IMG/VR virus record: IMGVR_UViG_3300017963_000230
Location: 1 to 64,000 of that record
Source: a virus
Length of the DNA stretch: 64,000 bases
Reading direction: 5' to 3' (one strand)
The position numbers and the translations under genes are program-made. This document shows positions 10,810 to 57,539 of this stretch, in pieces; within the stretch, counting starts at the first letter, position 1, and each line of letters begins with the position of its first letter. Under the pieces are notes generated by a model. It saw nothing but the letters and a program-made list of their open reading frames with translations, ran no database searches and was not told the origin of the DNA.

Positions 10810-10847
10810 CATTAAGCAAGTAAAGTTCGTGCAGAATTCAGCAAATA
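10810..10847 (+). promoter_or_regulatory. Conserved ~38-nt intergenic motif, copy B
   Basis: cattaagcaagtaaagttcgtgcagaattcagcaaata, followed by TGCTACAAT (10862-10870). Confidence 0.6.
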
Positions 10848-30181: not shown

Positions 30182-30220
30182 GCATTAAGCACAGGAAGTT
30201 CATGCAGAATTCAGCAAATA
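30182..30220 (+). promoter_or_regulatory. Conserved ~38-nt intergenic motif, copy C
   Basis: gcattaagcacaggaagttcatgcagaattcagcaaata, 17 nt before the SD-less ATG 30237. Confidence 0.6.
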
Positions 30221-41190: not shown

Positions 41191-44100
41191 ACTAACTCAC
41201 CTACTTTCATCTTAACATCAACTTCCCATTTATTGTTAAGATTAGTCTGTATGCGAAAAGTGATTAGATAAGGATCTAAGTCTGGATCCCCGCTAACCAC
41301 TCTTTGACAGTATTTGTAAACATCTACCACATAGGGACTGCCTGACAATATATCAGTAACAGCATTGCCGTCCTTATCCTTAGCAGTTACGGTAGAGTTA
41401 TTGGTGTCTATAGTTTCTCCACTCTCGAGTACATCCTCAAAGTCACCATATGGCACGAAGGACTCCCAAGGTTGCTTGAAAAAGTTCTTTACTTTTGGTG
41501 TGCTGCCCACCTCAATCACCTCCTTAAATCCTAATGTTACAACATCTCTTTTATATCCTAACGTGACCTCGTCACGGGTAAATCCAATGTGGGGCTCCTC
41601 AGAGGGAGGGTATGTAGTCGTAGTGGTACTGTAAGTACTAGAAGTAGATGTGCTGGTACTTGTGGTTGAATAGGTGCTGGTTGTACTGAAGGTGCTGGTA
41701 GAAGTACTAGAAGTTGTTCCTGTTCCAGTAGTGCTCGTTGTGCTGAGAGTACTAGTGGTACTGAAGGTGCTTGTGCTTGTGCTTGTGCTGGTACTGGTAC
41801 TGGTTGTCGAGTAGGTACTTGTGCTGGTTGTCGAGTAGGTACTTGTGCTGGTACTGGTGCTGGTGCTTGTGCTTGTACTGGTGGTACTAAAGGTGGATGT
41901 GCTGGTACTTGTGGTAGAGTATGTGCTGGTGCTTGTACTGGTGCTTGTACTAGTAGTAGAGTAGGTACTGGTACTGGTACTGGTACTGGTGCTTGTGCTT
42001 GTACTGGTGGTCGAATAGGTGCTTGTGCTTGTGCTGGTTGTTGAGTATGTGCTGGTACTTGTGCTGGTACTGGTACTTGTGGTTGAATATGTACTAGTGC
42101 TGGTACTGGTACTTGTGGTTGAGTAGGTGCTGGTACTGGTACTTGTGGTTGAGTATGTGCTAGTGCTTGTAGTAGAGTATGTGCTGGTACTTGTGGTTGA
42201 GTATGTGCTGGTACTTGTGGTTGAGTATGTGCTGGTACTTGTGGTAGAGTATGTGCTGGTGCTTGTACTGGTGGTACTAAAGGTGGATGTGCTGGTACTT
42301 GTGGTAGAGTATGTGCTGGTGCTGGTTGTGCTGAAGGTAGATGTGCTGGTGCTAGTTGTGCTGAAGGTGGATGTGCTGGTGCTAGTTGTGCTGAAGGTAG
42401 ATGTGCTGGTGCTGGTACTTGTACTGGTGGTTGAATAGGTTGAAGTACTAGTGCTGGTAGTTGAGTATGTACTGGTGCTTGTACTGGTGCTTGTACTTGT
42501 GGTTGAATATGTACTGGTAGAAGTACTGGTGCTTGTACTGGTGGTTGAATAGGTTGAAGTACTAGTGCTGGTGGTTGAGTATGTGCTGGTACTTGTACTG
42601 GTACTGGTACTTGTGGTTGAGTATGTGCTGGTACTTGTACTGGTTGTAGAGTAAGTGCTTGTACTGGTACTGGTACTGGTACTGGTGGTTGAGTAGGTAC
42701 TGGTAGAAGTACTAGAACTGGTGCTAGTTGTGCTGAAGGTAGATGTGCTGGTGCTTGTAAAGGAAGTAGTGGTTGTAGAACTAGTGGTAGTTTCTCCTGG
42801 TTCTGTAGTCGTAGTGGTACTGAAGGTACTGGTAGTGCTATAAGTTGAGGTGCTGGTAGAAGTACTGGTGCTTGTGCTGGTTGTTGAATATGTACTAGTG
42901 CTGGTACTGGTGGTTGAGTATGTGCTGGTACTTGTGCTAGTAGATGTACTGGTTGTAGAGTAGGTGCTGGTACTTGTACTTGTGGTTGAGTATGTGCTGG
43001 TACTTGTACTGGTACTGGTACTTGTGGTTGAGTATGTGCTGGTGCTGGTGCTGGTGCTGGTGCTGGTTGTCGAGTATGTACTGGTAGAAGTACTGGTAGT
43101 TGAGTATGTGCTGGTGCTTGTGCTGGTACTTGTACTTGTGGTTGAGTATGTGCTGGTGCTTGTACTTGTGGTTGAGTATGTGCTGGTAGAAGTACTGGTG
43201 CTGGTACTTGTAGTAGAGTATGTGCTGGTGCTTGTACTAGTAGATGTGCTGGTTGTTGAGTAGGTGCTGGTGCTTGTAGTAGAGTAGGTGCTGGTTGTTG
43301 AGTAGGTGCTGGTAGAAGTACTGGTGCTGGTACTTGTAGTAGAGTATGTGCTGGTGCTTGTACTAGTAGATGTGCTGGTTGTTGAGTAGGTGCTGGTAGA
43401 AGTACTGGTACTGGTGCTTGTGGTTGAATAGGTACTGGTACTTGTACTGGTACTGGTACTTGTGGTTGAATAGGTTGAAGTGCTTGTACTAGTAGATGTG
43501 CTGGTGGTTGAATATGTACTAGTGCTTGTACTTGTGGTTGAGTATGTGCTGGTGCTTGTGCTGGTACTGGTACTTGTGGTAGAGTAGGTACTGGTACTGG
43601 TACTTGTGGTTGAGTATGTGCTGGTGCTTGTGCTGGTAGTTGAGTATGTGCTGGTGCTGGTGCTTGTAAAGGAAGTAGTAGTTGTGGAACTGGTGGTAGT
43701 TTCTCCTGGTTCTGTAGTTGTAGTGGTACTGAAGGTACTAGTTGTACTGAAAGTGCTGGTGCTTGTGCTTGTGCTGGTACTGGTACTTGTAGTAGAGTAT
43801 GTGCTGGTGCTGGTACTTGTAGTAGAGTATGTGCTGGTACTTGTGCTGGTACTGGTACTTGTGGTTGAGTATGTGCTGGTGCTTGTGCTGGTTGTTGAGT
43901 ATGTGCTGGTAGAAGTGCTGGTTGTTGAGTATGTGCTGGTAGAAGTGCTGGTACTGCTACTTGTGGTTGAATATGTACTAGTACTTGTACTTGTGGTAGA
44001 GTATGTGCTGGTGCTTGTACTGGTACTGGTACTTGTGGTTGAGTATGTGCTGGTGCTGGTGCTGGTTGTTGAGTATGTACTGGTGCTGGTGCTTGTACTG

Positions 44101-46142
44101 GTACTTGTGGTTGAATAGGTGCTGGTGCTGGTGCTGGTTGTTGAGTATGTACTGGTGCTGGTGCTTGTACTGGTACTGGTTGTTGAGTATGTGCTGGTAG
44201 AAGTGCTGGTTGTTGAGTATGTACTGGTGCTGGTACTGGTACTGGTACTTGTAGTTGAGTATGTGCTGGTACTGCTACTTGTGGTAGAGTATGTGCTGGT
44301 ACTAGTGCTTGTGGTAGAGTATGTGCTGGTGCTTGTGGTTGAATAGGTACTGGTGCTTGTGCTGGTACTGGTACTTGTAGTTGAGTATGTGCTGGTAGAA
44401 GTACTGGTACTGGTGCTTGTGGTTGAATAGGTACTGGTGCTTGTGCTGGTACTGGTACTTGTAGTAGAGTATGTGCTGGTACTGGTGCTTGTGCTGGTAC
44501 TGGTTGTTGAGTATGTGCTGGTGCTTGTGCTGGTACTTGTACTTGTGGTTGAGTATGTGCTGGTGCTTGTGCTAGTGCTGGTACTTGTGGTTGAATATGT
44601 ACTAGTGCTGGTGCTGGTGGTTGAGTATGTGCTGGTGCTTGTGCTGGTTGTTGAGTATGTGCTGGTACTTGTGCTGGTACTGGTACTTGTGGTTGAATAT
44701 GTACTAGTGCTGGTACTGGTACTTGTGGTTGAATAGGTTGAAGTACTTGTGCTAGTAGATGTGCTAGTGGTTGAATAGGTTGAAGTACTTGTGCTTGTTC
44801 TGGTACTTGTACTGGTAGTTGAATAGGAACTGGTACTTGTACTGGTACTGGTACTTGTGGTTGAGTATGTGCTGGTACTGGTGCTTGTACTGGTACTTGT
44901 ACTGGTAGTTGAATAGGTACTGGTAGAAGTGCTGGTGCTTGTACTGGTGGTTGAATAGGTTGAAGTGCTTGTACTGGTACTGGTGCTGGTTGTACTTAAG
45001 GTGCTAGTGCTGGTACTTGTTTGAGTGCTAGTACTGGTGGTAGAATAGGTACTAGTAGAAGTACTGGTGGTAGAATAGGTGCTGGTAGTTGAATAGGTGC
45101 TGGTACTTGTACTGGTGGTAGAATAGGTGCTGGTTGTTGAGTAGGTGCTGGTACTTGTACTGGTCGTAGTAAAAGTAGTGGTAGTGGTAGTGGTAGTAGC
45201 AGCCTCCCCTTCACACTCTAATAGGAACTCCAAAGTTTCTGAGGCTGTAAGTTCATCATCAGTGGTTATTAATATTTCACCACCAGGCAACCATACTAGT
45301 TGATAATTATTAGTACCTCCATACTGTTGTATATTACAAGTAGAAGGAGGTTCGGTAGTTGTAGTACTAGTTGTACTAAAGGTAGTGGTTGTACTGAAAG
45401 TGCTGGTGCTTGTGCTGGTAGTTGAGTAGGTGCTTGTACTGGTGCTTGTGGTAGAATAGGTGCTGGTACTTGTACTTGTTTGAGTGCTGGTACTTGTACT
45501 TGTTTGAGTGCTTGTACTGGTACTTGTGGTTGAATAGGTGCTGGTACTTGTAGTACTAAAGGTGGTAGTGGTAGTACTCGTGGTAGTGGTAGGCGAGGAA
45601 ATCGTGATCGTGGGCGTCTCGTCAAATGTCGATAAATTCGGGTCTTTAACCCTAACCTGTATCAAACCACCATTGACAACGTTCACAGAATTAATCTGGA
45701 GGCAGACCTCCATCTCACAGAACTCATTTCCCCCGAAGTCGATGGTGTCAGCAATCGTGTCGTTGGTTGCGCCGTCACTCAGCTCACCGAAATCTCCGCT
45801 GGACGATGCACCTCCGTCATAAACCCGCTTGTTATTGTCAAGGTCGCCGTCAGTATAGTAGGTGGTAGTCGAGAAGGCTATTTCGACTGATGTGGTTGTT
45901 ACTTGAGTCCAAGAGCCATAGCTTGACCCCGTGCCGGTGGAATCGTAGCGGTATTCCAGTTCGAACATCGGGTTAGCTTCCGCCTTGTTGTTCGACTCCA
46001 CAACGGCAAAACGGATGCGGAAGTTCTCATCAGTATTCTGCGTCCAATCATTATTAAGCGAGGCTTTCGTGGTTGCGCTACCAGGAACGGCATCGTCTTT
46101 GTAGCCCTGAAAGTCCTCCTGTGTATAAATTGGATTTGTCAT
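41187..46142 (-). CDS. Giant mucin-like Ser/Thr-repeat protein (1651 aa) with globular N- and C-terminal domains
   Basis: Uninterrupted ORF, ATGA-coupled on both sides. About 180-aa N-terminal domain, more than 1300 aa of STSTSTYSTT-type repeats, about 140-aa C-terminal domain. Confidence 0.85.
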   Translation of the reverse strand: MTNPIYTQEDFQGYKDDAVPGSATTKASLNNDWTQNTDENFRIRFAVVESNNKAEANPMFELEYRYDSTGTGSSYGSWTQVTTTSVEIAFSTTTYYTDGDLDNNKRVYDGGASSSGDFGELSDGATNDTIADTIDFGGNEFCEMEVCLQINSVNVVNGGLIQVRVKDPNLSTFDETPTITISSPTTTTSTTTTTFSTTSTSTYSTTSTSTSTQTSTSTSTQTSTSTSTYSTTSTSTSTYSTTSTSTSTFSTTTTFSTTSTTTTEPPSTCNIQQYGGTNNYQLVWLPGGEILITTDDELTASETLEFLLECEGEAATTTTTTTTFTTTSTSTSTYSTTSTYSTTSTSTSTYSTTSTYSTTSTSTSTYSTTSTSTQTSTSTSTLSTTSTSTSTSTSTYSTTSTSTSTSTSTYSTTSTSTSTSTSTSTYSTTSTSTSTSTSSYSTTSTSTRTSTSTSTYSTTSTSTSTSTSTYSTTSTSTSTSTYSTTSTSTSTSTSTYSTTSTSTSTYSTTSTSTSTYSTTSTSTSTSTSTYSTTSTSTSTSTSTYSTTSTSTSTSTSTYSTTSTSTSTSTSTYSTTSTSTSTSTSTYSTTSTSTSTSTSTYSTTSTSTYSTTSTSTSTYSTTSSSTSTYSTTSTSTSTSTSTYSTTSTSTSTYSTTSTSTSTSTSTYSTTSTSTSTYSTTSTSTSTSTSTYSTTSTSTSTYSTTSTSTSTSTSTYSTTSTSTSTYSTTSSSTSTSTSTYSTTSTSTSTYSTTSTSTSTYSTTSTSTSTSTSTYSTTSTSTSTYSTTSTSTSTSTSTSTFSTTSTFSTTTTTEPGETTTSSTTTTSFTSTSTSTYSTTSTSTSTYSTTSTSTSTYSTTSTSTSTSTSTYSTTSTSTSTYSTTSTSTSTSTSTYSTTSTSTSTSTSTYSTTSTSTSTSTSTYSTTSTSTSTSTSTYSTTSTSTSTSTSTYSTTSTYSTTSTSTYSTTSTSTSTSTSTYSTTSTSTSTSTSTYSTTSTSTSTYSTTSTSTSTSTSTYSTTSTSTSTYSTTSTSTSTSTSTYSTTSTSTSTSTSTYSTTSTSTSTYSTTSTSTSTSTSTYSTTSTSTSTYSTTSTSTSTSTSTSTYSTTSTFSTTTTTEPGETTTSSTTTTSFTSTSTSTFSTTSTSSSTSTSTYSTTSTSTSTSTSTYSTTSTSTSTYSTTSTSTSTSTSTYSTTSTSTSTYSTTSTSTSTSTSTYSTTSTSTSTSTSTYSTTSTSTSTYSTTSTSTSTSTSTFSTTSTSTSTFSTTSTSTSTFSTTSTSTYSTTSTSTSTFSTTSTSTSTYSTTSTSTYSTTSTSTYSTTSTSTYSTTSTSTYSTTSTSTSTYSTTSTSTSTSTYSTTSTSTSTSTSTYSTTSTSTSTYSTTSTSTSTSTSTSTSTYSTTSTSTSTSTSTYSTTSTSTSTFSTTSTSTSTSTSTSTSTYSTTSTSTYSTTSTSTSTSTSTSTFSTTSTLSTTSTTGTGTTSSTSTSTFSTTSTYSTTSTSTSTSSTYSTTTTTYPPSEEPHIGFTRDEVTLGYKRDVVTLGFKEVIEVGSTPKVKNFFKQPWESFVPYGDFEDVLESGETIDTNNSTVTAKDKDGNAVTDILSGSPYVVDVYKYCQRVVSGDPDLDPYLITFRIQTNLNNKWEVDVKMKVGELV
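41612..45595. repeat. Ser/Thr-coding low-complexity repeat tract with a ~909-bp super-repeat
   Basis: (a/g)gt(a/g)ct-type periodicity. The identical 24-mer ggtagtttctcctggttctgtagt occurs at 42786 and 43695. A non-repeat island lies at ~45199-45352. Confidence 0.9.
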
Positions 46143-46456
46143 TTAATGTACGGGTCTTTCCTTGCCGTATCGAATATTTTTTGCCATTGTTTAGAGGGTA
46201 TGGTGCGCCCCGCCTTCACGATTATTTCTCCCTTATAATGTGCCATGTAGTCAATTAAACCTATCATGTCCACACCCACCCAGAAGCCGTCTTGGAAAAT
46301 ATACCAGTCGCTACCGTTCTGGTGATATTTTCTCTCGGTGTGCAAATCATACTGAATAATGTCTTGCACGTCCCAGAACGGTGCCTCCCTAGGGGAGCCC
46401 TGTTCGTCGTTAAAGCTACTGTCGGTGTAATATATTTTCCATTTTCCTTTGCTCAT
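46139..46456 (-). CDS. Hypothetical protein
   Basis: 105 aa, ATGA-coupled to both neighbours. Confidence 0.7.
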   Translation of the reverse strand: MSKGKWKIYYTDSSFNDEQGSPREAPFWDVQDIIQYDLHTERKYHQNGSDWYIFQDGFWVGVDMIGLIDYMAHYKGEIIVKAGRTIPSKQWQKIFDTARKDPYIK

Positions 46457-49400
46457 TGTAAGTCCACCAGCGGCACATGCAGCGGCTTGCCAAATGCCGT
46501 CCAGATTTGTGGTGTAAATCTGTCCTTGGTTATATAAAAAGCCCCGATCAGACAGTCAGCAGAATTTGCTCCACTTTCATCTGCACCCAGATACATTGTT
46601 CCTGTCGTCTTTGACCAACTTCCACCTGAATCTTCATGATCTAATAAGATTCCATTTACATAGAAATCTATATAATCTGAATCATCCCAAGCAAGTTCAA
46701 CCCAGTACCATACTCCTGCTGTTGGCGTTAATGTGCTTGCCAAATATCTTGTTACTCCATCAGATTGCCAGATAGCATAGAAATAACTGCTCGCACTTAT
46801 ATACAAATCTATATAATCTGTTGCATCTCCAAACCCTAAAAAGTACTTGGATGCTGTGACAGTCTGAAAATTAACCCACATACCTATTCGCCCATAGCTG
46901 CCATCAAAATTATTTGCATCTATTGAAAATGAAGCTGAGTGGCTCCCCTCTGCCGTAGTGTCAAAACTTTTTGTTCCAATAATCTTATCGGCGGTTGTCA
47001 GCACACCTGACCCATTCAGGGTGACTGTATAATTCGTGCCGAGGTTTGCACCACCCTTGGCTGCCCCCGCCCCTGATGCCTGACAATCCCAGAAAAAAGT
47101 CAAATCAGCATGTGGGTTGTTAATGTCTGCCAACAGCCCTTCGCCGTTGCCGATGAAGTAGGCACCGAAGGGCAGCAGACACTCACTAAAGGTTTTGACA
47201 TCGTCAATGATTATATCAGCAGGATAAGTACGATTTATTCTTGAACCAATCTCGAAATTTACAGGATCGCCTGATCCAGCTGTTCCAGTATTAATTTTAC
47301 TTGCTGCACATACCCCATCATAAAAAATAAACCACTCATGCCTTAAAAGATCCCATGAAAATAAAATCACATGACATCTTTTAAGACTATAATTATCATA
47401 AGTTTGTGGTGCTGAACCTTGCCAAATAGCTGATCCTCCAACGGAACCACCTGTATTCCAATTATCAGGCGTTGGATTATAAATGCATGTAAAATAATCA
47501 TCGCTACTTATGTAGAGTTCAAAAAGACCTTGTCCATCAACTGTATCATAATCAAATTGGGGTAAAAGTTTTATCATAAGTGACCCACGACAAAAAAACG
47601 CATTATCATGTACAGTCCCGCTTCCAAATGTCATTTCAATATGTCCAGCACCGTCCTGAGTATCCAAATTCCTACCCCTGCCAAACACCTGAACAGAATC
47701 TCCACTTGTGTTGGTATTCCTGTCACTTCCATCTGAAATGTTGCTCCAAGTGCCATCTGCATTGTTTGCAGTTTGATCTGTAAGAGTGGGGCTTGCGGCG
47801 TTCTCATCACATTTTAAATGGCACAGCAAAATATCTGTCGGGCTTGCCACGGTTCCATACTGAAAAGGCCAATCATGAATTGCAAATGCAGGGCGTATGC
47901 GGGTTGTATCTAAAGTCAATTTAACTGCATCGTTTGTATCCACCTCATAATGGTGTGCTCCATCTGAATGCAGGGTGCCGCTTGAAATCCTTGCCGGTAA
48001 AATCATGTCGGTGACATCATCACCTTTGCTTGGGCTTTGATCCAAGATGGCGTCTTTATATTGATCACCCATTGCAAGGCGGTCAGTGGAGTCATAGATT
48101 TTTGTGGAGCCTTCGCGGTCTTCTGTATCAAATATCCAAACATTTACAATCTCATGTGTACCTGGCTCAATAGTGCAGTTATCCCACCCTATTCGATATT
48201 GCCTTGTACTACTATGATATTGGCTTAAACTGCCTCCTGTTGATGATTCCGATAAGTTAATTAAAATATGATCCAGCTCATCAGCATCAATTCCAACATA
48301 GTCAGCACTCCCATGCTCTCCTGTACCTGTTGATTCAGAGCCACCATTTTCATAAATTGCTGTATCGTTCGTTAAAACTCCACTTCCTATATAATTCATA
48401 GGGAAGCCATTTTGACCATTGCTATCAATACTAATATTTCCACCAGAAGTTATCCATTTACTGTGCTGCACAATACGGTCTGAATAAATATAAAGATAAA
48501 TTTCAATGGAATCTGAATTGGTCAATACAGTAGGAGTTGAATTATAAAAGTTTCCTCTAAATCTCAAAACTACCCTGTTTGCATTTGATTCAATTATTTC
48601 TATAATTGAATTTGGGTCGTATCCTAAATTGTAGACACCTGAAGAAACAACGACTTGAGCGGGATAATAATAATTCCATGTAGTCGCACTATTGTTGTCA
48701 CAATTTAAACCACCAGTTTCTGTCGGATCAAATAATATACTAAATCCATCACAATAAACTGTTACTGTGCTGCCGGATTCTTCGATTGACAAATACGGAT
48801 CAACCACAAGCCCCACGCCTTGCTCATAGCGTTCAAGTGGAGTCCTTGCGTCTGCAACGTCTATTTGTTTTCCATCCGGCTCAAATGTCCACCAATGCTG
48901 AGTCCATCCTGGTTCTGGGTCTCCCTGTGATCCATGATTGACATTGCCCTCATAGTCTGAAACAGAAAACCACAAGCCTTTATGAACAACAGGAAACAAT
49001 GGATCAGATTCATCAACCCATCGCAAAGCTGAATCCTTAACCCTACATTGCCAACGGATTCGGGCATTGAAACCTGGCGTGTCCAGATAAAACGATAGCT
49101 TGGTGTTTTTAAAAGCCCAGTGAACATCCATGCCGAAAACCGCATCAGTTATACCAAGTGCCGGAATGTCTTTGACTACATAACACCTGAAAAATGGAGT
49201 CACTGGAACCGTACCTTCGTCTGTTTCAATCTCAGTTATCTTCTGCACGTTGGAATCAGCAAAAGAAAACAACTGCCCTTGCCAGTTGTTGGGTGATATT
49301 TCTACCTGCCCTTCAAGCTGGGCTTCAGCTACAAGGTTACCTTTCCAATAAATCTGAATCGTGTTCGACAGGACCACGATGTCGGCAGTCCCATCGAACA

Positions 49401-49542
49401 CCTTTTTGCGGAAAGCCTTGGCGGGTGCATAGTCTGTGACTTCTTGATTTACATCTTTGTAAATCGGATCACCCTGTTCATCGACTCCACTTTGCAGAAA
49501 ATAATCCTGAGGGTTTTGTTCTTCTGATTTTACAAGTCTCAT
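46453..49542 (-). CDS. Large fibre/adhesin-like protein with two LamG/ConA-like lectin-fold regions
   Basis: C-terminal YFLGFGDATDYIDLYISASSYFYAIWQSDG...WYWVELAWDD...FYVNG, plus an earlier FELYISSDDYFTCIYNP...HVILFSWD...IFYDG pattern. Visibly higher G+C than the glycan island. Confidence 0.6.
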   Translation of the reverse strand: MRLVKSEEQNPQDYFLQSGVDEQGDPIYKDVNQEVTDYAPAKAFRKKVFDGTADIVVLSNTIQIYWKGNLVAEAQLEGQVEISPNNWQGQLFSFADSNVQKITEIETDEGTVPVTPFFRCYVVKDIPALGITDAVFGMDVHWAFKNTKLSFYLDTPGFNARIRWQCRVKDSALRWVDESDPLFPVVHKGLWFSVSDYEGNVNHGSQGDPEPGWTQHWWTFEPDGKQIDVADARTPLERYEQGVGLVVDPYLSIEESGSTVTVYCDGFSILFDPTETGGLNCDNNSATTWNYYYPAQVVVSSGVYNLGYDPNSIIEIIESNANRVVLRFRGNFYNSTPTVLTNSDSIEIYLYIYSDRIVQHSKWITSGGNISIDSNGQNGFPMNYIGSGVLTNDTAIYENGGSESTGTGEHGSADYVGIDADELDHILINLSESSTGGSLSQYHSSTRQYRIGWDNCTIEPGTHEIVNVWIFDTEDREGSTKIYDSTDRLAMGDQYKDAILDQSPSKGDDVTDMILPARISSGTLHSDGAHHYEVDTNDAVKLTLDTTRIRPAFAIHDWPFQYGTVASPTDILLCHLKCDENAASPTLTDQTANNADGTWSNISDGSDRNTNTSGDSVQVFGRGRNLDTQDGAGHIEMTFGSGTVHDNAFFCRGSLMIKLLPQFDYDTVDGQGLFELYISSDDYFTCIYNPTPDNWNTGGSVGGSAIWQGSAPQTYDNYSLKRCHVILFSWDLLRHEWFIFYDGVCAASKINTGTAGSGDPVNFEIGSRINRTYPADIIIDDVKTFSECLLPFGAYFIGNGEGLLADINNPHADLTFFWDCQASGAGAAKGGANLGTNYTVTLNGSGVLTTADKIIGTKSFDTTAEGSHSASFSIDANNFDGSYGRIGMWVNFQTVTASKYFLGFGDATDYIDLYISASSYFYAIWQSDGVTRYLASTLTPTAGVWYWVELAWDDSDYIDFYVNGILLDHEDSGGSWSKTTGTMYLGADESGANSADCLIGAFYITKDRFTPQIWTAFGKPLHVPLVDLQ

Positions 49543-50020: not shown

Positions 50021-50244
50021 TTTTTACCTCCCTTGTTAAATCTTGACTCAATCACAAAGTCAAGCAAATAGATTAATTTACGTTTCTGATAATCTTCCAA
50101 TTCCTCATCCTGTTGTATCTTCACCCTTATTTTATAGAATAACTTTCTGGTCAGGCAGAAGCGTCTGGGGGCATCCACTTCTTTACCCAATCCTCTATAC
50201 TGACCTTTTGACGCCTTTGAATATGATCTCTGTGGCGGCGACAT
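50017..50244 (-). CDS. Hypothetical protein
   Basis: 4-nt overlap with the downstream gene, but a 94-nt overlap with the 3' end of the GT-A gene. Confidence 0.35.
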   Translation of the reverse strand: MSPPQRSYSKASKGQYRGLGKEVDAPRRFCLTRKLFYKIRVKIQQDEELEDYQKRKLIYLLDFVIESRFNKGGKK

Positions 50245-51167
50245 TTCAGGTCTACATTCCTATAAATAGAGTGAAGAACTTCAGGTTTCCCCTTGAGACC
50301 CCCATTAATAGCTTTGAGTGCATAATCCCTTCCTCCATAAAGGTAACAAGCGATGAGCTTATTGCGTACATAGTCATCATAAAGGTAATGATAGCTTCTC
50401 CTTTCACCATGATGGAAACAAGTACCATTAGGATAGATCCATTTATTCATTCCCAAAACGGATAGGGTAAAATTAAAAAAGTTCTCACCTCCTCCATATA
50501 TACCAAGCTCAGGAGACCAACCTCCTAATGCTTCATATACTTTTCTTGATACGAGTACTCCACAACAACTCATGCAGGGAACCTCAAAAGGATCTCCTTT
50601 GTCTACACGACAGGGTGTGAATTTGTAGTCAAGTAACCCATGTTCAAACCACTCAACATTAAGTTTGTATATCAACCTACGAGATTCTAATATTTTATAA
50701 GTGAGTGGTAAGTGCATTGATCCGTTTATCTTTTCCTCATTCTGCTTATAGTACTGGAGCATACCATAAAGGCTGTCACGAGCAAGGATAACGTGTGAAT
50801 CCACAAAAAATAAATAATCACCAGTGCTGTGCTTAACACCCACCCTTTTGGCATTCCAATGGGACAGCCTTTCAGAATACTCTGCATGTTTCAACCATGG
50901 GTTCTGTTTCTGAGCTGTAGCTTTAATGGCTTCGGCTCCCTTATCCTCTTCCCAAGGTAGGTTCTGAGTCTTTCTTTGATTCACAAATTGATCACAATAA
51001 TTGTTTACTGCTACGATCTCGAAGTCTACCCTGTCACGCAGCTCTCCTGCGATGGATTGCAAAGTGAATATCAGCTGTGGATATTCATTTACATACGGTA
51101 TAATTACTGAAAGTTCTGCCATTTTATCGTATTCCTTTCTTCTCCTGCGAGATTGTCGTAAAGTCAT
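50151..51167 (-). CDS. GT-A glycosyltransferase with ppGalNAc-transferase-like motifs
   Basis: LSVIIPYVNE, YLFFVDSHV (DxH), GGWSPELGIYGGGENFFNFTLSVLG...CFHHGERR (compare WGGENLEISFRVWQCGG...VGHVFRK of animal GalNAc-Ts, recalled from memory). Confidence 0.6.
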   Translation of the reverse strand: MTLRQSRRRRKEYDKMAELSVIIPYVNEYPQLIFTLQSIAGELRDRVDFEIVAVNNYCDQFVNQRKTQNLPWEEDKGAEAIKATAQKQNPWLKHAEYSERLSHWNAKRVGVKHSTGDYLFFVDSHVILARDSLYGMLQYYKQNEEKINGSMHLPLTYKILESRRLIYKLNVEWFEHGLLDYKFTPCRVDKGDPFEVPCMSCCGVLVSRKVYEALGGWSPELGIYGGGENFFNFTLSVLGMNKWIYPNGTCFHHGERRSYHYLYDDYVRNKLIACYLYGGRDYALKAINGGLKGKPEVLHSIYRNVDLKCRRHRDHIQRRQKVSIEDWVKKWMPPDASA

Positions 51168-51194: not shown

Positions 51195-51233
51195 TATTTG
51201 ACGAATTCTGCACGAACTGTGCTTGCTTAATGC
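51195..51233 (-). promoter_or_regulatory. Conserved ~38-nt intergenic motif, copy D (minus orientation, upstream of a minus-strand gene)
   Basis: Reverse complement gcattaagcaagcacagttcgtgcagaattcgtcaaata, 28 nt before the SD-less ATG at 51167. Confidence 0.6.
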
Positions 51234-51244
51234 TTCACTATGCT

Positions 51245-52120
51245 TTATTTATTTCCACTAAACAATTTCCTTCTGGGTCTTGCTGGAGTACTTTCAACAT
51301 CTGTGCTTGATACACTTTTAGAAGTGGTAGAAGATTTGGTAGAGGGTTTTCTAAATACGATACCATACTGACCAAAAAAATACCTGCGCTTGTGTATCAT
51401 ATCCCAGGACCCCGTTCTATCTAATAAATCAAATCCTGTACTCTTTGCCAAGTCTTCCATATACCACATTGACATCTGTATGTTAATGCCACGAACTTTA
51501 GTTTTAGGTCCGCCTTCACGATATCCTGGTCCTTCTTTCTCCTTTTCGATGTCTTTCAGTACCTCAGACCAAGGCTGGTGAAGAGCTGACCTTAGCATTC
51601 TGGAAAAGAAAACTACTCCAACTCCTCCTGGTTTCATAACACGGTAAACCTCTTTCAAATAATTTCTGATATTTTCCACCGTTCCTAAGTGCATAAACGT
51701 AACCCAACTGTGGACAAAATCAATACTCTCTTCTGGAAGTGGAATTGTTTTACCATCTCCTACTACTAATTCTACCTCTTCGTCCTTAATTCCCCTCTTA
51801 TTGAGTTCTTCCATAACAAAGTCGGCTTCTTCATGAACATCTAAACCATATGCCTTGTCAAAATACAATGAGGCAGCCAAAACTTGTCCACCACTTCCAT
51901 AACCTATATCTAAAGAAGTCTTGGTATTAAGTTTCTTAAGATACTTTTTGGCACTTGGAAGCATAAGCCTGTTGAAAACATCCTCTGCCTTTTCAAAAGC
52001 CGCATCCGTAGTTTCATTTTCACCTTTAGGTCCATCAAACCAACTAAAGAACTTATCTCTTCCCTGTTCCCTTAATAATTTAATCTCATTACGGAAACCT
52101 TCTGGATTGCAATAATTCAT
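51245..52120 (-). CDS. Class I SAM-dependent methyltransferase with a Ser/Thr-rich tail
   Basis: SLDIGYGSGGQ, VHSWVTFMHL, MKPGGVGVVFF. C-terminal STKSSTTSKSVSSTD. Confidence 0.65.
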   Translation of the reverse strand: MNYCNPEGFRNEIKLLREQGRDKFFSWFDGPKGENETTDAAFEKAEDVFNRLMLPSAKKYLKKLNTKTSLDIGYGSGGQVLAASLYFDKAYGLDVHEEADFVMEELNKRGIKDEEVELVVGDGKTIPLPEESIDFVHSWVTFMHLGTVENIRNYLKEVYRVMKPGGVGVVFFSRMLRSALHQPWSEVLKDIEKEKEGPGYREGGPKTKVRGINIQMSMWYMEDLAKSTGFDLLDRTGSWDMIHKRRYFFGQYGIVFRKPSTKSSTTSKSVSSTDVESTPARPRRKLFSGNK

Positions 52121-52121
52121 T

Positions 52122-53048
52122 TCATACCTCCTTCTTTAAATAATTTATCAATTTAATTGCAGACCTATCATAGCTAAAAGATTTCTTGAACTTTTCTCTC
52201 CCATTCTTCCTAACCCGATCTATCAATAAAGGATTATCTAATAACCATTTAAGTTTAGAATGAAAATTATGGGAGTTCCAAGATATATAATCTTCCCCAT
52301 CTACTAAATCTTCATTAGGCAGAAAGTGGATATCCTCCAAGGAACAATGAGCATACAGCAAAGCACCAGCTTTTAAGCAATCTGCGTAAGATCCTGAATA
52401 CTGTCCAAAACCACAGCAGCCCACACTTATTAGAGTTCTTCTTAATTCTTGAATATAATTCTCTCTACCTTCCACCCTTTTATAACTAACATCAGGAAGA
52501 TCTTTATTAACTTTCAATATTTTACGAACCGACTCCCTAACATAATGAGGATAATATTCAACTCCTATTTGACCATGCTTGAAACTTATTGAAATGTCCC
52601 TATCGAATTCATCTCTATACACCTTAGCATCAGACAAACTTAAACTGGTATTCAATATTACATAATCAATTTTAGGGTAGTACTTACCTGTAAATGCTTT
52701 TATAACTGGAGGGTAAGGAGTTATATCATCAAATCTAGTGTATCCATCCTTGTTACCATCATCATGGGTGTCGTGTAGTATCTTAACCCCTTTAAACTTT
52801 AAGAATATGTTATCAAAATAGTCCACCGTTTCCTTATTAAACTTTTTAGGATTGTACTCATCAGGAAAAGTTTCATAAATAAGTACATCATAATCTTCCT
52901 CTAACATACTTTCCTTAAATCTTGAAAAGTAAACTATGGAGGAAGATATATCTGGAAATAAATTCATTTCCCTTACTACATTCTCAAGATAATATCCATT
53001 CGCTCCTTTGTGAAAAAGATAAAGTACCTTCATTCTTCCTTTTCCCAT
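52122..53048 (-). CDS. Putative glycosyltransferase (CgeB / Glyco_trans_1_2-like C-terminus)
   Basis: CLKAGALLYAH...LVDGEDYISW...LKWLLDNPLLIDRVRKNGREKF resembles the GT-B C-terminal pattern. Confidence 0.4.
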   Translation of the reverse strand: MGKGRMKVLYLFHKGANGYYLENVVREMNLFPDISSSIVYFSRFKESMLEEDYDVLIYETFPDEYNPKKFNKETVDYFDNIFLKFKGVKILHDTHDDGNKDGYTRFDDITPYPPVIKAFTGKYYPKIDYVILNTSLSLSDAKVYRDEFDRDISISFKHGQIGVEYYPHYVRESVRKILKVNKDLPDVSYKRVEGRENYIQELRRTLISVGCCGFGQYSGSYADCLKAGALLYAHCSLEDIHFLPNEDLVDGEDYISWNSHNFHSKLKWLLDNPLLIDRVRKNGREKFKKSFSYDRSAIKLINYLKKEV

Positions 53049-53758
53049 ATCATAAAGTGAGCTTTATTACCTTTCTTTTTCCATCCATTCTTAACAGCCC
53101 ACTCCCTCCCCATATCTCGTATATAATTAGGCTCTCCTGGATGACCATATACCCCATACTTCCAATGCATCACCTCGTTTACCAATGCTTCATTACCCCC
53201 ATGAAATTGCTTTTCAGGATTACGATCGGTGAGTAGATGTTGGCGACAGGCTTTAACGAAGGATCCCTTTATAAGGGAAGGATGACCACAGAAACCTACT
53301 GCTTGTTTAATTTCCTCTGGGCATTCATAATAAGTGCCATTCCAGGGAAACCAACGATCCCAGTTCTTCATACCATCCTTGCCACACTTAAACTGAGGTA
53401 GGCGCAGAAGTGCAAGATCTTGATATGATTCTAATATTCCCATCATATGTCGTAAGTCCACCCTTTGCAACAATTCCCAATCGTCTTCCAGTTGTAAGAT
53501 CCAATTATTTTCTACCTGATCCCAACACCACTTAAAAGCATCACTAAAATTAGGCTCTGCTGGACAGCGAGCAATAACGGGTTCTGCGAACCAATAGCAT
53601 AATTCTATCGACTTATAGCTGTCCTCATTTACTCCTACAGGATCCACATTAATAATAATTCTAAAGTCATGGTTCCATAAAAGGTTTTCTAAAAAAGAAT
53701 TAAGAGTCTTGAATAGTAATTCACGCCTTCTGCAAGCTGTGATTGTAACATCTATCAT
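53030..53758 (-). CDS. GT-A-like protein, paralogue of 56816-57538
   Basis: ITACRRRELLFKTLNSF and ILQLEDDWELL, versus ITYQRPDYLGRTLTSF and VMHLQDDWLST in the paralogue. Confidence 0.4.
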   Translation of the reverse strand: MIDVTITACRRRELLFKTLNSFLENLLWNHDFRIIINVDPVGVNEDSYKSIELCYWFAEPVIARCPAEPNFSDAFKWCWDQVENNWILQLEDDWELLQRVDLRHMMGILESYQDLALLRLPQFKCGKDGMKNWDRWFPWNGTYYECPEEIKQAVGFCGHPSLIKGSFVKACRQHLLTDRNPEKQFHGGNEALVNEVMHWKYGVYGHPGEPNYIRDMGREWAVKNGWKKKGNKAHFMIWEKEE

Positions 53759-53766
53759 GATACCTC

Positions 53767-54396
53767 CTATAGATATCTTTGAGCCATTATATCAAACCTA
53801 CTTAATGCCTCATTGTAAATACTTCTATCCTCTTGATTTATTTCATCAAGTATTCTCCTGGTACGTCCACTAAACCTAAACTTCTTCCTACCAGGAGTTC
53901 TGTTGGCATGCATCTTATGTATGATTTCAAATCCCAAAATCTTTTCTATTATTCTCATACTTTCTTCATGCCTCTCTGTAATACCTACAAAAGCAAATTG
54001 ATCTAAATCCCCGCCTGTCATTAGATGCATATAGTTAGGAAATTGACGGGCGAACCAAAATATATTCTTTGATTTAATTCCCTCAGCCCCGTGCTTCCAA
54101 ACAGAGTAATAGGAAATCAATCTGTCTACAGGATCCCTAAGGAAAGTAATCATAGGCCACCCTAAATGCTTATACTTATTGGCTGTAAAATGACCAATAA
54201 CGCCTACATGGTAGTTTTCGTCAAAACCACCAGGGTAACCCTTTTCAGACCTATCAGTAAATTTTATCATTCCCAAGTATCTGTCTTTCCTAAAATGACG
54301 ATCCCTAAATATCTTATCTTTAAACTTTTCCCTTACCGTAATATTAAAAGAAGTGCCTCCACATTTAGGTATATGAACAAAAACAAACTTCCTCAA
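53767..54396 (-). CDS. Sulfotransferase-family protein
   Basis: FVHIPKCGGTSF (5'-phosphosulfate-binding-type loop) and FLRDPVDRLISYY (3'-phosphate-binding-type motif). Confidence 0.6.
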   Translation of the reverse strand: MRKFVFVHIPKCGGTSFNITVREKFKDKIFRDRHFRKDRYLGMIKFTDRSEKGYPGGFDENYHVGVIGHFTANKYKHLGWPMITFLRDPVDRLISYYSVWKHGAEGIKSKNIFWFARQFPNYMHLMTGGDLDQFAFVGITERHEESMRIIEKILGFEIIHKMHANRTPGRKKFRFSGRTRRILDEINQEDRSIYNEALSRFDIMAQRYL

Positions 54397-54992
54397 AACG
54401 GCTTTATCCTTTCAAAATACATCATGTTATCGTAATAGGCTTTGATTCCTTTCTTGTCTTTCCAAGGTTTTAACAGATTCTTTACTCTATCCTGAATAGA
54501 TTGCCCGTTAATAAAACCTCTATTAACAAACTTGAATACCCAATAGGTGTAAGGCTGACAGTTGACATGACCGTGACCTCCTTGTCCAGGAGGAGCGGCT
54601 GAAATTAGAACTCTTTTGGAGAGATTGGTTAAATTCTCAACAAATTGATCTGCACACTCTTCATCTATATGCTCTGCTACCTCTAAACAAATTGCAAGAT
54701 CAAAACTTAGACCTAAGTTAAGTGGAAGTCTCAGGTCTTTGATGAAAACTTTATCTTTAGGAACCAAAAGGTAGGGAACTACATTATCCGTACCCTCTAT
54801 CCCATAGCACATTATCTTTCTTTTGTCAAACTCTTTTATTAGATCTCCAACAGCACACCCTGCATCTATCACAGATTTAGGATCTAATACTTTACAAATA
54901 GCATCACATACAGCCTTTGCTCTCCACTCTAAACTGCTTCTTCTTGCAAAATATCTTCCTTTATACATTGTTCTTAAATCAATCATTTTCAA
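54393..54992 (-). CDS. Class I SAM-dependent methyltransferase
   Basis: VIDAGCAVGDL, DLAICLEVAEHI. Confidence 0.6.
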   Translation of the reverse strand: MKMIDLRTMYKGRYFARRSSLEWRAKAVCDAICKVLDPKSVIDAGCAVGDLIKEFDKRKIMCYGIEGTDNVVPYLLVPKDKVFIKDLRLPLNLGLSFDLAICLEVAEHIDEECADQFVENLTNLSKRVLISAAPPGQGGHGHVNCQPYTYWVFKFVNRGFINGQSIQDRVKNLLKPWKDKKGIKAYYDNMMYFERIKPF

Positions 54993-56118
54993 TATATTCC
55001 TTTATTAAAGGTTGAATATCTGGTTTAGGATTCTTTCTAATTACACGGAACAGTCTTTCCATTTCAGGTAATATTACATCATAAAGACCATTACGCTTTT
55101 GAAAATCATCATAACACCTCTGCTTTATTCCCTTTTTACGGAAGGTAAGGATTGCATTCCTAAGTTCATGAGCTATGCTGCTTATATCATCAGGGTTTGA
55201 AGATACATGACAAAAAGGATTATCTTTCCAAATAGAAGGACAATGGCGGGCAGTCCCCGCCAAGAGTATAGGAGTTCCACAGGCCAGCGATTCTATTGGA
55301 CCCCTATCATTCTGCCCGCCTTGTCCCATAAAGACAGAAAGGTGGCTTTGGTTTAAAACCTCAGCCACCTTTGTGCGGTGGAGCATACCAGGACAGTGTA
55401 CTGACAGACGGGCACTATTTATAGTTGAACCTATCTGGTTTGTTTTGACCCCGTGAGTTACACGACCTGGCATTATACAGTGGAGGTCTTGATTAAAAAG
55501 CCTTTTATACTCCGCGATGACCTCAATGGTTTTCCACTGACCTTTCTTGTCGTGGACGTGCGATGCACCAACGCAGATATCATACCTCTTCTTAATATCA
55601 GGAAGAGGCCGGAAGTAATCCGGATTTATAGGCTTTTTGAAGTAGTAAAAAAATCTACCTCGGGAATCATAACGATGCTTCCCATAAAGGTCGTCAAAAA
55701 CAACGTCCCAGAACTTCCACCGTGCCCTACCTGTATTGGCTGCGTAAACCAGCAACCAACGCCTTTCTTTCTTCATACGGTTTAAAAAGTTAAACCAACT
55801 TCTAAATCCACCTCTTGCCCAAATTATATCATCTGATCTCAAGAACTGATGTGCATATCCTATCTCAGGAACTACATAACACTTAACATGATTAAAATAA
55901 GTGGTATAACCTGGACTGCGAGAGGATTCGATAAAAATAAGAAGGTCATCTATTATACCCTGATTAAGCATTTCGCGGAGCATATACAGGTACCCTTCGC
56001 TAGGCAATCCATTTTCACCTGTAGCATAAAAATTATTAGATTGAGCGTGAGGATCCCAAGGCACATTAGATCCTTCTTGTGCTGCTCCATCACTATTAAA
56101 TAAGAAAATCAACCTCAA
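54979..56118 (-). CDS. GT-B fold glycosyltransferase-like protein
   Basis: GQGGQNDRGPIESLACGTPILLAG is a typical GT1/GT4 C-terminal pattern. Confidence 0.5.
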   Translation of the reverse strand: MRLIFLFNSDGAAQEGSNVPWDPHAQSNNFYATGENGLPSEGYLYMLREMLNQGIIDDLLIFIESSRSPGYTTYFNHVKCYVVPEIGYAHQFLRSDDIIWARGGFRSWFNFLNRMKKERRWLLVYAANTGRARWKFWDVVFDDLYGKHRYDSRGRFFYYFKKPINPDYFRPLPDIKKRYDICVGASHVHDKKGQWKTIEVIAEYKRLFNQDLHCIMPGRVTHGVKTNQIGSTINSARLSVHCPGMLHRTKVAEVLNQSHLSVFMGQGGQNDRGPIESLACGTPILLAGTARHCPSIWKDNPFCHVSSNPDDISSIAHELRNAILTFRKKGIKQRCYDDFQKRNGLYDVILPEMERLFRVIRKNPKPDIQPLIKEYIEND

Positions 56119-56828
56119 GGTGCAAACCTCTTAACCGCTTCATCATATATTATTAGATCTTTTTTATTGTATTTTCCGATTATATCTCTTTCCTTTTTAC
56201 TTATCTCCGGGTAGTCTCTAAAATTATAAATAGGATAAGCATTTGGAATAGGCATACCACTCCACTTACCAAATCTCTGTAAGCTCTCATCGTAATACTC
56301 TGTTATGCCTATAAAGTCGAATTTATCTAAATCTGTTCCTCCAATAAACTTACTAATAGGATTACGAGTGCCTTCGTACCTAGCAAAATCTATTAGAGTC
56401 ATCTCCTCCTTTATTATCTTTATGTGTATTTCTGGAGACCTGGCAGTAGTATTATGAATTTTAAGAGAATAGAACTGACTTGCAACCATATCTATAGGAT
56501 TCCTTACCCATGTGACCATAGGCAATCCTAAATAATCATACTTAGTATGATGAAAATGCCCATGTATTATGTCAAATAGAGTAGCATTAGGAGGAGGAGA
56601 GGCTTTTATTATATCAGGAATATACCTCTTACTTGTTTCATCATGAAGCACATTTAAAATACCATACCAATAAAACAGAAGGTTGCGAAAAGTAGTCCCT
56701 CCTGTTCTTGGTATGTGAATAGAAATAAACTTATGAATGATGGAGGATCTATCTTCCATCCTAGGATACCATTTCTTTAACTGTATAGAGAAAGGGGTAG
56801 GTTTCTTCTTTCTACTCATCTTACCCAC
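56115..56828 (-). CDS. Sulfotransferase-family protein (second copy)
   Basis: SIHIPRTGGTTF and WVRNPIDMVASQFY. Confidence 0.6.
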   Translation of the reverse strand: MGKMSRKKKPTPFSIQLKKWYPRMEDRSSIIHKFISIHIPRTGGTTFRNLLFYWYGILNVLHDETSKRYIPDIIKASPPPNATLFDIIHGHFHHTKYDYLGLPMVTWVRNPIDMVASQFYSLKIHNTTARSPEIHIKIIKEEMTLIDFARYEGTRNPISKFIGGTDLDKFDFIGITEYYDESLQRFGKWSGMPIPNAYPIYNFRDYPEISKKERDIIGKYNKKDLIIYDEAVKRFAP

Positions 56829-57538
56829 CTATCCTTTCCCCTAATTTCTGTTGTAGCCCTCTCTTCTCCTATGTGCATAAAACAGTTTCCTCTCACCTGA
56901 CCAGCAAGTAAACCTAATTTATGATATTTCTCCATCGCATCGTGCTCTTCAGTTACAGGTAGCATACGCTTTAAAACGGAGGTTCTAATGATAGTAGGAT
57001 TAAAGGTAAAATGAGCATTACCAATAACAATACGACAGTACTTATTGAACTTGGTATCCCATTTCTTCCATTTGATAGTCTTTTTAGAGATTCTATTTAC
57101 AATACTCACCTTGCTCCACGTAGCCGACCTAAGCCGTGCATACCCAACATCCTCCCTTTCTTCAAACAGTTGAAAGATACCTTTGTTATTTTTATATCCA
57201 GAGAAGTCATCCTCATAAAGGTAGTGAGTAATAGGCTCCGTACTTAACCAATCATCTTGTAAGTGCATTACAAGATCCGTACCTTCTTCTAAAAGCTCTT
57301 GATTTAAAAGGGAATAACCCCAAGCACAACCATGATTACTTTTAAGGGAAATAATCCTATCTATTCTCTCTTTAAACCTATCTAGAACTCTCATCGTAGC
57401 GTCATCCATGCCCTGCACAAGCACCACTACTGGTCTAAATTCTTCTAAGCAATCATAATTAACATTAAAGAAGGAAGTGAGTGTTCTGCCTAAGTAGTCA
57501 GGACGTTGGTACGTTATAATTCCCAAGGGCACTCTCAT
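56816..57538 (-). CDS. GT-A-like protein, paralogue of 53030-53758
   Basis: See 53030-53758. Shares the N-terminal beta-strand/Arg motif and the xQxxDDW motif. Confidence 0.4.
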   Translation of the reverse strand: MRVPLGIITYQRPDYLGRTLTSFFNVNYDCLEEFRPVVVLVQGMDDATMRVLDRFKERIDRIISLKSNHGCAWGYSLLNQELLEEGTDLVMHLQDDWLSTEPITHYLYEDDFSGYKNNKGIFQLFEEREDVGYARLRSATWSKVSIVNRISKKTIKWKKWDTKFNKYCRIVIGNAHFTFNPTIIRTSVLKRMLPVTEEHDAMEKYHKLGLLAGQVRGNCFMHIGEERATTEIRGKDRWVR

Positions 57539-57539
57539 A

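Follow-up and report, generated by a model that had tools for sequence, protein, structure and literature searches.

The DNA stretch analyzed here (hereafter, the window) consists of positions 1 to 64,000 of the IMG/VR virus record IMGVR_UViG_3300017963_000230 and represents a tailed-phage genome for which near-identical contigs of 85-88 kb are available. A gene on the minus strand of the window (50151..51122) encodes a predicted GT-A glycosyltransferase (GT) of 323 amino acids (aa) that, judging from profile comparisons and a structural model, appears to be a GT27/GT60-like enzyme albeit not a canonical member of GT27. The GT27 enzymes of the CAZy classification, the polypeptide N-acetylgalactosaminyltransferases (ppGalNAc-Ts, also denoted GALNT), occur in animals and apicomplexans. 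By modifying Ser/Thr-rich domains, GT27 (or GT60) enzymes start mucin-type O-glycosylation, which is considered a eukaryotic invention located in the Golgi. The phage enzyme is probably a cytoplasmic peptide O-N-acetylhexosamine (HexNAc) transferase of the GT27/GT60 structural type that acts on mucin-like phage fiber proteins. A glycobiologist or a phage biologist would find a GT27-like enzyme in a phage surprising, and full-text searches of a literature library yielded no description of such an enzyme or of phage mucin-like glycoproteins.

The AlphaFold2 (AF2) model of the protein (predicted local distance difference test score, pLDDT, 94.7; predicted TM-score, pTM, 0.92) was compared to the PDB using Foldseek, and all 50 best matches were ppGalNAc-Ts (E-values from 2e-16 to 2e-12; query TM-scores, TMq, of 0.59-0.76), with alignments of about 340 columns that cover the whole phage protein. 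Among these 50 matches are human T1, T2, T4, T7, T10 and T12 as well as Toxoplasma T3 (TgT3) and Drosophila PGANT9. In the control search with p242, a neighboring GT-A enzyme modeled with comparable confidence (AF2 pLDDT 93.8), the matches came from a mixture of GT-A families (SpsA, K4CP, GnT-I, TarP and EXTL2) with E-values of 7e-10 or weaker, and GalNAc-T2 did not appear before rank 48.

Sequence comparisons point in the same direction. The alignment of the phage family (40 members, 45-80 % identity) matched a GT27 profile constructed from 27 animal GalNAc-T catalytic domains with an hhalign probability of 97.9 % (E 6.5e-13) over 222 columns that include the DxH, the GGE and the third His, compared to 0.5 % for the family against p242 and 0.2 % for p242 against GT27. 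A single-sequence phmmer search of the PDB placed ppGalNAc-T10 at the top (E 7e-6) and also retrieved T12 and T4, with an alignment that passes through the GGEN region. When the family profile was searched against the PDB, seven distinct ppGalNAc-T sequences were matched (E 1e-4 to 5e-3), and these alone cover the C-terminal half of the protein; the matches to TarP, TarS and heparosan synthase are confined to the N-terminal, nucleotide-binding half. A preliminary description of this DNA, made from the letters alone, had proposed the GT27 assignment and suggested that it be weighed against generic GT2 by profile comparison. An equivalent form of that comparison favors GT27, and the best matches are not polyprenol-phosphate or polysaccharide GT2 enzymes devoid of similarity in the GGEN region.

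The gene lies in an open reading frame (ORF) of 338 aa (50151..51167, minus strand) that is present in the window as the preliminary description had it, with the DSH, GGGEN and HHGERR motifs, and carries GDYLFFVDSHVILARD, GIYGGGENFFNFTLSVLG and TCFHHGERRSYHY. The start at position 51167 given there is probably not the true one, in that the extra 15 codons are likely to remain untranslated. The likely start is Met16, the ATG at 51122, because all homologs, as well as an independent gene call (P0001, 323 aa, 100 % identical), begin at MAELSVIIPY; a purine-rich AGGAGAAGAAAGGAA is located just 5' of this ATG. Counting from Met16, the residues D108, H110, Y209, G211, G212, E213, N217, H237, G239, R242 and Y244 are invariant across the 40-member alignment. 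The putative metal-binding DxH motif (D108-S-H110; 50793..50801, minus strand) is aligned with the DSH of GalNAc-T10 in independent PDB alignments and with the DSH of the GT27 profile in the hhalign comparison. The same hhalign alignment places the GGGE of the phage family (G210-G-G-E213-N214; 50481..50495, minus strand), the apparent counterpart of the WGGEN of the Gal/GalNAc-T motif, on WGGE. H237, the first residue of H237-H-G-E-R-R242 (50397..50414, minus strand), is paired with the His of GHVFR, GHIFR or GHVYR in T10, TgT3, PGANT9 and the GT27 profile, and Y244 is paired with the conserved Tyr that follows this His in GT27. Given that the Mn2+ ligands of GALNT1 are D209, H211 and H344 (PMC4202792), D108, H110 and H237 can be predicted to be the counterparts of the GT27 metal-binding triad, and the GGE, to correspond to the sugar-binding GGE. 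The motif alignment proposed in the preliminary description accordingly stands for the DSH, the GGE and the His of GHVFR; it breaks down beyond the GGE, where the remainder of WGGENxExSFRxWxCGG is not retained in the phage protein: the Trp is replaced by Tyr, N214 is variable among the 40 members (N, H, Q, D or P), and the rest differs.

The second line of evidence comes from the proteins encoded in the neighborhood. The two STSTSTYSTT-type repeat proteins that had been noted near the gene are real. One is a 1651-aa mucin-like protein (41187..46142, minus strand), in which about 1,290 aa of repeats, with 74 % Ser+Thr, separate globular N- and C-terminal domains; the other is a fiber- or adhesin-like protein of 1056 aa and 45 % Ser+Thr (59445..62615, minus strand), in which two Ser/Thr-repeat linkers separate the N-terminal part, an F5/8-type-C (discoidin) domain and a LamG/ConA-like C-terminal domain. 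Both are proposed acceptors of the GT27-like enzyme. The repeat proteins contain discoidin and LamG modules and show PHROG matches to virion and tail proteins. In an otherwise near-identical contig (L001, 14981-17326), the mucin-like protein is 781 aa long versus 1651 aa in the window, a difference that could reflect either hypervariability of the repeat array or collapse of the repeats during assembly.

Across the 67 IMG/VR loci that carry a gene of this family, Ser/Thr tracts, defined as at least 60 % Ser+Thr over 40 aa within 10 kb on either side of the GT27-like gene, were found in 36, compared to 7 of 120 random viral loci (0.96 Mb in total, sampled by an arbitrary 14-mer; Fisher p 1.7e-13), which strengthens the previously suggested link between the gene and the adjacent repeat proteins. 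Normalized for length, the tracts amount to 947 residues per 100 kb versus 42 in the random loci, an approximately 22-fold enrichment (Poisson p 4e-12), and under a stricter criterion (at least 18 of 20 residues Ser or Thr), the counts are 34/67 and 0/120, respectively (p 6e-19). The tracts fall in 52 ORFs, all but one of which (51/52) are encoded on the same strand as the GT and often abut either end of the cassette described below. After masking of the repeats, the 52 ORFs break up into 32 unrelated clusters, and each end domain of the repeat proteins in the window is retained in 4 of the 67 loci at most. The tracts vary in composition, with poly-Thr and TS repeats at one end and, at the other, 'TTTTTVAP' units similar to the Pro/Thr/Ser (PTS) repeats of mucins. 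The strongest genomic evidence in favor of a protein acceptor is that such tracts recur in proteins that are not homologous to one another but are encoded beside a conserved cassette.

The cassette itself is well conserved in its order across the 67 loci: a Ser/Thr-rich protein gene, GT4_420, GT379 (in some of the loci), MT199, p242, the GT27-like gene and another Ser/Thr-rich protein gene. The most conserved partner is GT4_420, a GT4-type GT-B enzyme (58121..59383, minus strand; 53/67 loci) that is usually encoded directly downstream of a Ser/Thr-rich protein. The methyltransferase-like protein MT199, predicted to be S-adenosylmethionine (SAM)-dependent (54393..54992, minus strand), and p242, a divergent generic GT-A enzyme with an EDD motif (53030..53758, minus strand) that typically is encoded immediately upstream of the GT27-like gene, are each represented in 40 of the 67 loci, and GT379, a weak GT1/GT-B-type glycosyltransferase (54979..56118, minus strand), in 36. 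Single-sequence PDB searches with GT4_420, p242 and GT379, as well as a search with the p242 profile, retrieved no match. The GT27-like gene closes the cassette in most loci and usually abuts or overlaps p242 or MT291, a class I SAM methyltransferase with a Ser/Thr-rich C-terminal tail (51245..52120, minus strand) that is an accessory component (8/67 loci). The separation of the gene from the rest of the island, which had been pointed out in the preliminary description, applies to the window, where the flanking gaps are 122 nt upstream and 130 nt downstream, but not in general, most relatives being contiguous with the cassette. We therefore rejected the separation as functionally meaningful.

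The proposed mechanism can be outlined as follows. A lineage of approximately 85-kb tailed phages would carry a soluble, cytoplasmic, Mn2+-dependent GT-A enzyme of the GT27/GT60 type that, late in infection, would move HexNAc (GlcNAc or GalNAc) from a host UDP-sugar to Ser/Thr hydroxyls of the fiber- and adhesin-like proteins. The co-transcribed p242, GT379 and GT4_420 would then extend the glycan, and the methyltransferases and, in the phage from the window, the sulfotransferase-like protein would decorate it. The predicted product consists of stiff, protease-resistant, mucin-like bottle-brush spacers that would project the discoidin and LamG modules from the virion. In this scheme, we infer that the enzyme initiates glycosylation, that the acceptor is a protein, which sugar is donated, that the mechanism is retaining, and what the glycan brush does. 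The protein opens directly at beta-strand 1 (MAELSVIIPY), ends with helices (residues 248-322) that follow the catalytic core and contains no transmembrane (TM) segment (maximum Kyte-Doolittle hydropathy over 19 residues, KD(19), of 1.02).

Several observations weigh against this interpretation. Pfam assigns all 40 family members to plain GT2 (PF00535), although this label cannot distinguish GT27 from generic GT2 because the animal GT27 enzymes carry PF00535 as well. PF02709 is not reached by the protein from the window and is matched weakly by 2 of the 40 members (E 0.055), and the sequence identity to GT27 enzymes is 13-20 %. Neither a ricin-type lectin domain (no PF00652 match in the 323 aa) nor the membrane anchor and stem that confer type II topology on GT27 enzymes are present in the phage protein. 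About 40 % of the related loci contain no Ser/Thr-rich ORF within 10 kb on either side, many of these loci, although not all, being truncated, and genome module was not controlled for in the choice of the random loci for the 36/67 versus 7/120 comparison. PolA-anchored loci from this lineage are moderately enriched too (159 tract residues per 100 kb), and part of the tract signal is therefore attributable to the lineage. In the isolated phage Tunturi_4 (see below), no Ser/Thr tract was found in the first 14 kb. Finally, the GT4 enzyme is even more tightly tied to the Ser/Thr-rich genes than the GT27-like enzyme and, by analogy with GtfA, could be the initiator.

The last of these points leads to an alternative in which the pathway would be the same but the GT27-like enzyme would elongate or branch the glycan, with the GT4-type GT-B enzyme (58121-59383) acting as the initiator. 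In the glycosylation of bacterial serine-rich-repeat proteins, the first GlcNAc is added by GtfA, a GT4 enzyme; GT27 includes glycopeptide-preferring isoforms; and the conservation of GT4_420 in 53/67 loci, its typical position next to a Ser/Thr-rich gene and the terminal position of the GT27-like gene in most cassettes all fit this division of labor. Nevertheless, we consider it rather unlikely. The GT4_420 profile produced weak, generic matches to GT4 enzymes of the BshA type, none of them specific to GtfA, whereas every solved close structural relative of the phage enzyme is a peptide-directed initiating transferase. Furthermore, in several loci (for example, L010, L040, L063 and L065), the GT27-like gene is adjacent to Ser/Thr-rich ORFs and GT4_420 was not detected in the stretch analyzed, and four loci (L010, L042, L059 and L062) encode two or three GT27-like paralogs in tandem, an arrangement reminiscent of the families of initiating GalNAc-T isoforms with different peptide and glycopeptide preferences.

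Two further possibilities place the acceptor outside the fiber proteins. The enzyme could modify the host envelope (teichoic acid, lipopolysaccharide, capsule or exopolysaccharide), by analogy with the prophage-encoded TarP and GtrB, and contribute to serotype conversion or superinfection exclusion, in which case the link with Ser/Thr-rich proteins would be coincidental. The GT2 assignment by Pfam, the weak PDB matches to TarP and TarS, and a PHROG match to 'GtrB-like O-antigen conversion' (E 0.008) are in line with such a role, but these weak matches span only the N-terminal nucleotide-binding half. Neither a TM segment nor an amphipathic membrane segment is present in the phage protein, and a flippase or GtrA/GtrC partner was not detected in the scanned ORFs of the window. 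Virion-type genes surround the gene, and the genome looks lytic, with no integrase among the ORFs scanned. Together with the approximately 22-fold enrichment of Ser/Thr tracts and the specificity of the hhalign match to GT27, these features make an envelope acceptor quite improbable. Still less probable, in our estimate, is the glycosylation of hypermodified phage DNA bases, such as 5-hydroxymethyl pyrimidines, as a means of protection against restriction. DNA glycosylation by phage GT-A and GT-B enzymes has reportedly been described by Pyle et al. (2024, cited in PMC12619734). A radical-SAM protein and a fusion of uracil-DNA glycosylase (UDG) with PolA are encoded in the window, and the element upstream of the GT27-like gene is shared with genes of the replication module, occurring, e.g., just before the clamp loader gene at 30237. 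However, the cassette is always located on the strand and on the side of the virion and fiber genes rather than in the replication module; no hydroxymethylase, kinase or base-modification gene was recognized among the window ORFs scanned (some small ORFs fell outside the scan); the structural neighbors of the enzyme are peptide transferases; and the association with Ser/Thr-rich proteins would be left unexplained.

The proposed modification of the fiber proteins by a GT27-like enzyme can be compared with several known systems. With the GT27 ppGalNAc-Ts, the phage enzyme shares a GT-A catalytic domain that superposes over essentially its whole length, the DxH with the distal His, the GGE of the Gal/GalNAc-T motif and the conserved Tyr after the His, as well as the association with dense Ser/Thr (mucin-like) acceptor domains and the occasional tandem paralogs. 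The animal enzymes differ in possessing a C-terminal ricin lectin domain and an N-terminal anchor and stem, neither of which is found in the phage protein, and in working in the Golgi lumen, whereas the bacteriophage-encoded enzyme is predicted to be cytoplasmic. The GT60 Skp1 hydroxyproline GlcNAc-transferase Gnt1 is cytoplasmic, and UDP-GlcNAc is universally available as a donor in bacteria; several structural neighbors of the phage enzyme in BFVD carry the name 'Glycosyltransferase, GlcNAc'. The GT60 polypeptide alpha-GlcNAc-transferases of protists are related to GT27 and differ from it chiefly in the absence of the ricin domain (PMC8724618). The phage enzyme, too, is a GT27-like core that lacks this domain, but GT60 is a eukaryotic family whereas the family described here is found in phages. 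No GT60 member is among the best PDB structural matches, and the Pfam matches of the 40 family members at E <= 1 were to GT2 families.

To our knowledge, the documented cases of phage virion glycosylation come mainly from mycobacteriophages and involve short C-terminal glycans, and we know of no description of the enzymes involved as GT27-like. Virion glycosylation in mycobacteriophages of the Che8/Corndog type was reportedly described by Freeman et al. (2023, Cell Host Microbe). In these phages, which infect Actinobacteria, structural proteins of the phage are modified in the cytoplasm by GTs that the phage itself encodes, the respective GT genes lie among structural genes, and the glycans are presumed to protect the virion as a shield. 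This is the nearest known concept to the system discussed here; the glycans are located close to the C-terminal ends of capsid and tail-tube subunits (PMC12619734), in contrast to the kilodalton-scale Ser/Thr repeat domains of the proposed acceptors in the present case.

The bacterial serine-rich-repeat adhesins (Fap1, GspB, PsrP) provide another parallel, in that their very long Ser-rich repeats are O-glycosylated in the cytoplasm by a multi-GT cluster that includes both GT-B and GT-A enzymes, with a fibrillar glycoprotein adhesin as the product. In those systems, however, the initiator is the GT4 enzyme GtfA, aided by the chaperone GtfB, and the adhesin is exported by SecA2/Y2, none of which were identified here; the signature gene of the phage cassette is a GT27-like GT-A enzyme, and the repeat proteins are phage-encoded. 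SunS and ThuS, the glycocin S/O-glycosyltransferases that modify ribosomally synthesized and post-translationally modified peptides (RiPPs), are GT2-type GT-A enzymes that act on peptide Ser or Cys, but their substrates are short structured peptides rather than repeat domains, and they are not among the best Foldseek structural matches of the phage enzyme. A distant member of the family (P0360), with all motifs intact, contains a fused PqqD/RRE peptide-binding domain of the kind that is typical of peptide recognition in RiPP enzymes, which could be taken as a thin additional hint of a protein acceptor. The polyprenol-phosphate or membrane-associated GT2 enzymes (GtrB, DPM1-type) and the processive polysaccharide synthases are attached to the membrane through TM or amphipathic helices, possess a DxD and a catalytic-base motif and are accompanied by flippase or polymerase genes, unlike the phage enzyme with its DxH and no TM segment.

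In the same vein, none of the proteins encoded in the island contains a TM-like segment (maximum KD(19) of 1.3 or less), and no gene for a flippase, polymerase, lipid-carrier or nucleotide-sugar enzyme and no GtrA/GtrC/Wzx/Wzy-type partner was recognized among the window ORFs scanned. In the absence of TM segments and of partner genes among the ORFs scanned, a membrane-bound or lipid-linked polysaccharide pathway was rejected. The NCBIfam and PHROG matches of the GT27-like protein are far below the thresholds (for NCBIfam families such as PgaC, for example, 17.6 bits with a cut-off of 422 bits).

The family is essentially restricted to phages. Among 1.84 billion clusters, 786 representatives were detected at E <= 1e-3, including 120 at E <= 1e-30; these figures pertain to in-family proteins, the distant tail in which eukaryotic GT27 enzymes might appear lying outside their range. 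Within 185,579 species, each represented by one genome, the family was found in 8 contigs, all from metagenome-assembled genomes (MAGs), 5 of which were binned to Desulfobacterota-type organisms. These cassette-bearing contigs (L071-L078), the bins of which also include Thermoplasmatota and Thorarchaeota MAGs, are probably mis-binned or host-associated phage contigs; the repeated binning with Desulfobacterota is a weak hint at the host. Isolated phages yielded a single, distant relative, namely, gp2 of the cultured Tunturiibacter phage Tunturi_4 (23.5 % identity), which retains DNH, GEE and H..KRGY and is encoded between the terminase and portal genes.

It is possible, if short of probable, that widespread tailed phages, the hosts of which are probably anaerobes or sediment dwellers, carry out genuine mucin-type O-glycosylation, with a lectin-free GT27/GT60 enzyme initiating dense O-HexNAc modification on hundreds of fiber Ser/Thr residues and a portable cassette of four GTs and a methyltransferase, with or without a sulfotransferase, elaborating the glycans. 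The modified fibers would then be the first mucins of prokaryotic viruses, and the phage clade might represent the relatives that the eukaryotic polypeptide HexNAc-transferases have among prokaryotes or viruses, or even the source from which these enzymes came. If so, the compact, soluble, lectin-free phage enzyme would represent a relative of the ppGalNAc-Ts in the prokaryotic world, with a bearing on the origin of the family, and the glycosylated bottle-brush fibers would be expected to affect adsorption to the host, adherence to biofilms and mucus, and shielding from proteases and immunity. On the practical side, bacteria equipped with such a small, cytoplasmic O-HexNAc transferase for peptides could be used to produce mucin-type glycoproteins, and the cassette combined with Ser/Thr tracts could serve as a signature for finding such phages in metagenomes.

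The GT27-like gene is preceded by a conserved, promoter-like element of approximately 45 nt (motif D), the core of which (51196..51218, minus strand) is located some 75 nt 5' of the ATG of Met16; its existence, likewise noted in the preliminary description, is borne out. The 23-nt core, AGTTCRTGCAGAATTCNNCAAAT, occurs in 4 copies in the window, with 0 expected by chance; the other copies are at 6328-6350 (minus strand), 10824-10846 and 30197-30219 (both plus strand). The element is intergenic, has the layout GCATTAAGC..AAGTTCRTGCAGAATTC..CAAATA and is found not only in front of the GT27-like gene but also in front of replication genes, such as the clamp loader. Possibly, the element is a promoter or regulatory site specific to the phage, in which case expression of the GT would be coupled to that of the early or middle genes and not to that of the late fiber genes. 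A scan for sigma-70 promoters and terminators around the gene produced no more than the chance expectation. Because the gene usually abuts p242 or MT291 in related loci, the gap and the promoter-like element appear to be local features of this phage.

The remainder of the window is divided between two modules. The plus strand of the first 40 kb (1-40 kb) encodes replication and recombination proteins, including helicases, a primase, a radical-SAM protein, the UDG-PolA fusion, a clamp loader, a gp32-like single-stranded DNA-binding protein, UvsX/RecA, a flap endonuclease (FEN) and SbcCD-like proteins. The fusion protein (26306-28951, plus strand) is a family-A DNA polymerase with an N-terminal domain of the uracil-DNA-glycosylase superfamily; it has more than 460 relatives in IMG/VR and appears to define a large lineage of uncultured phages. 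PolA was considered as an anchor for an independent control of the tract enrichment and rejected: an alignment of two PolA sequences retrieved 80 loci from the same phage lineage, and a single-sequence query retrieved one locus.

The minus strand from 41 to 64 kb encodes very large fiber- or adhesin-like proteins and the tightly packed island (51245-59383), which consists of two GT-B enzymes, the divergent GT-A enzyme p242, two or three methyltransferases, a sulfotransferase-like protein and several uncharacterized proteins. The cassette is flanked, on the same strand, by fiber-like proteins with LamG, discoidin and Fn3-associated domains, among them a 1029-aa LamG-domain protein (46453..49542, minus strand) encoded between the GT and the 1651-aa repeat protein. 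A 142-aa protein (49592-50020, minus strand), encoded between the GT and the LamG fiber gene, has a strongly hydrophobic N-terminus (MKKSIYVVILSLVIIFSAYA, KD 2.1), the region being otherwise devoid of signal- or TM-like segments. The tail of MT291, which ends in …KPSTKSSTTSKSVSSTDVESTPARP, could be a linker or a site of self-glycosylation. The sulfotransferase-like protein (53767..54396, minus strand; Sulfotransfer_2, PHROG galactose-3-O-sulfotransferase) is an accessory component present in 3/67 loci; it hints at sulfated glycans on the phage, for which 3'-phosphoadenosine-5'-phosphosulfate (PAPS) would have to be supplied by the host. No function was assigned to p308 (52122..53048, minus strand; 4/67 loci) or to p237, p240 and p194, small, soluble, poorly conserved proteins encoded within 56115..58124 on the minus strand.

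Three members of the family display unusual domain architectures. In P0242 (601 aa) and P0243 (740 aa), a generic GT2 domain is fused to the N-terminus of the GT27-like domain, suggesting that the two activities might act consecutively on one substrate; P0243, which contains the sequence 'GIWGGGENF' and passes the Pfam threshold for PF02709, has an additional C-terminal extension of about 165 aa. In P0388 (709 aa), the GT27-like sequence is interrupted after 'KIWG' by an intein- or homing-endonuclease-like insertion of about 300 aa that begins with GCVDDQTELLTKNGW, and the GT sequence resumes before YGGGEP.

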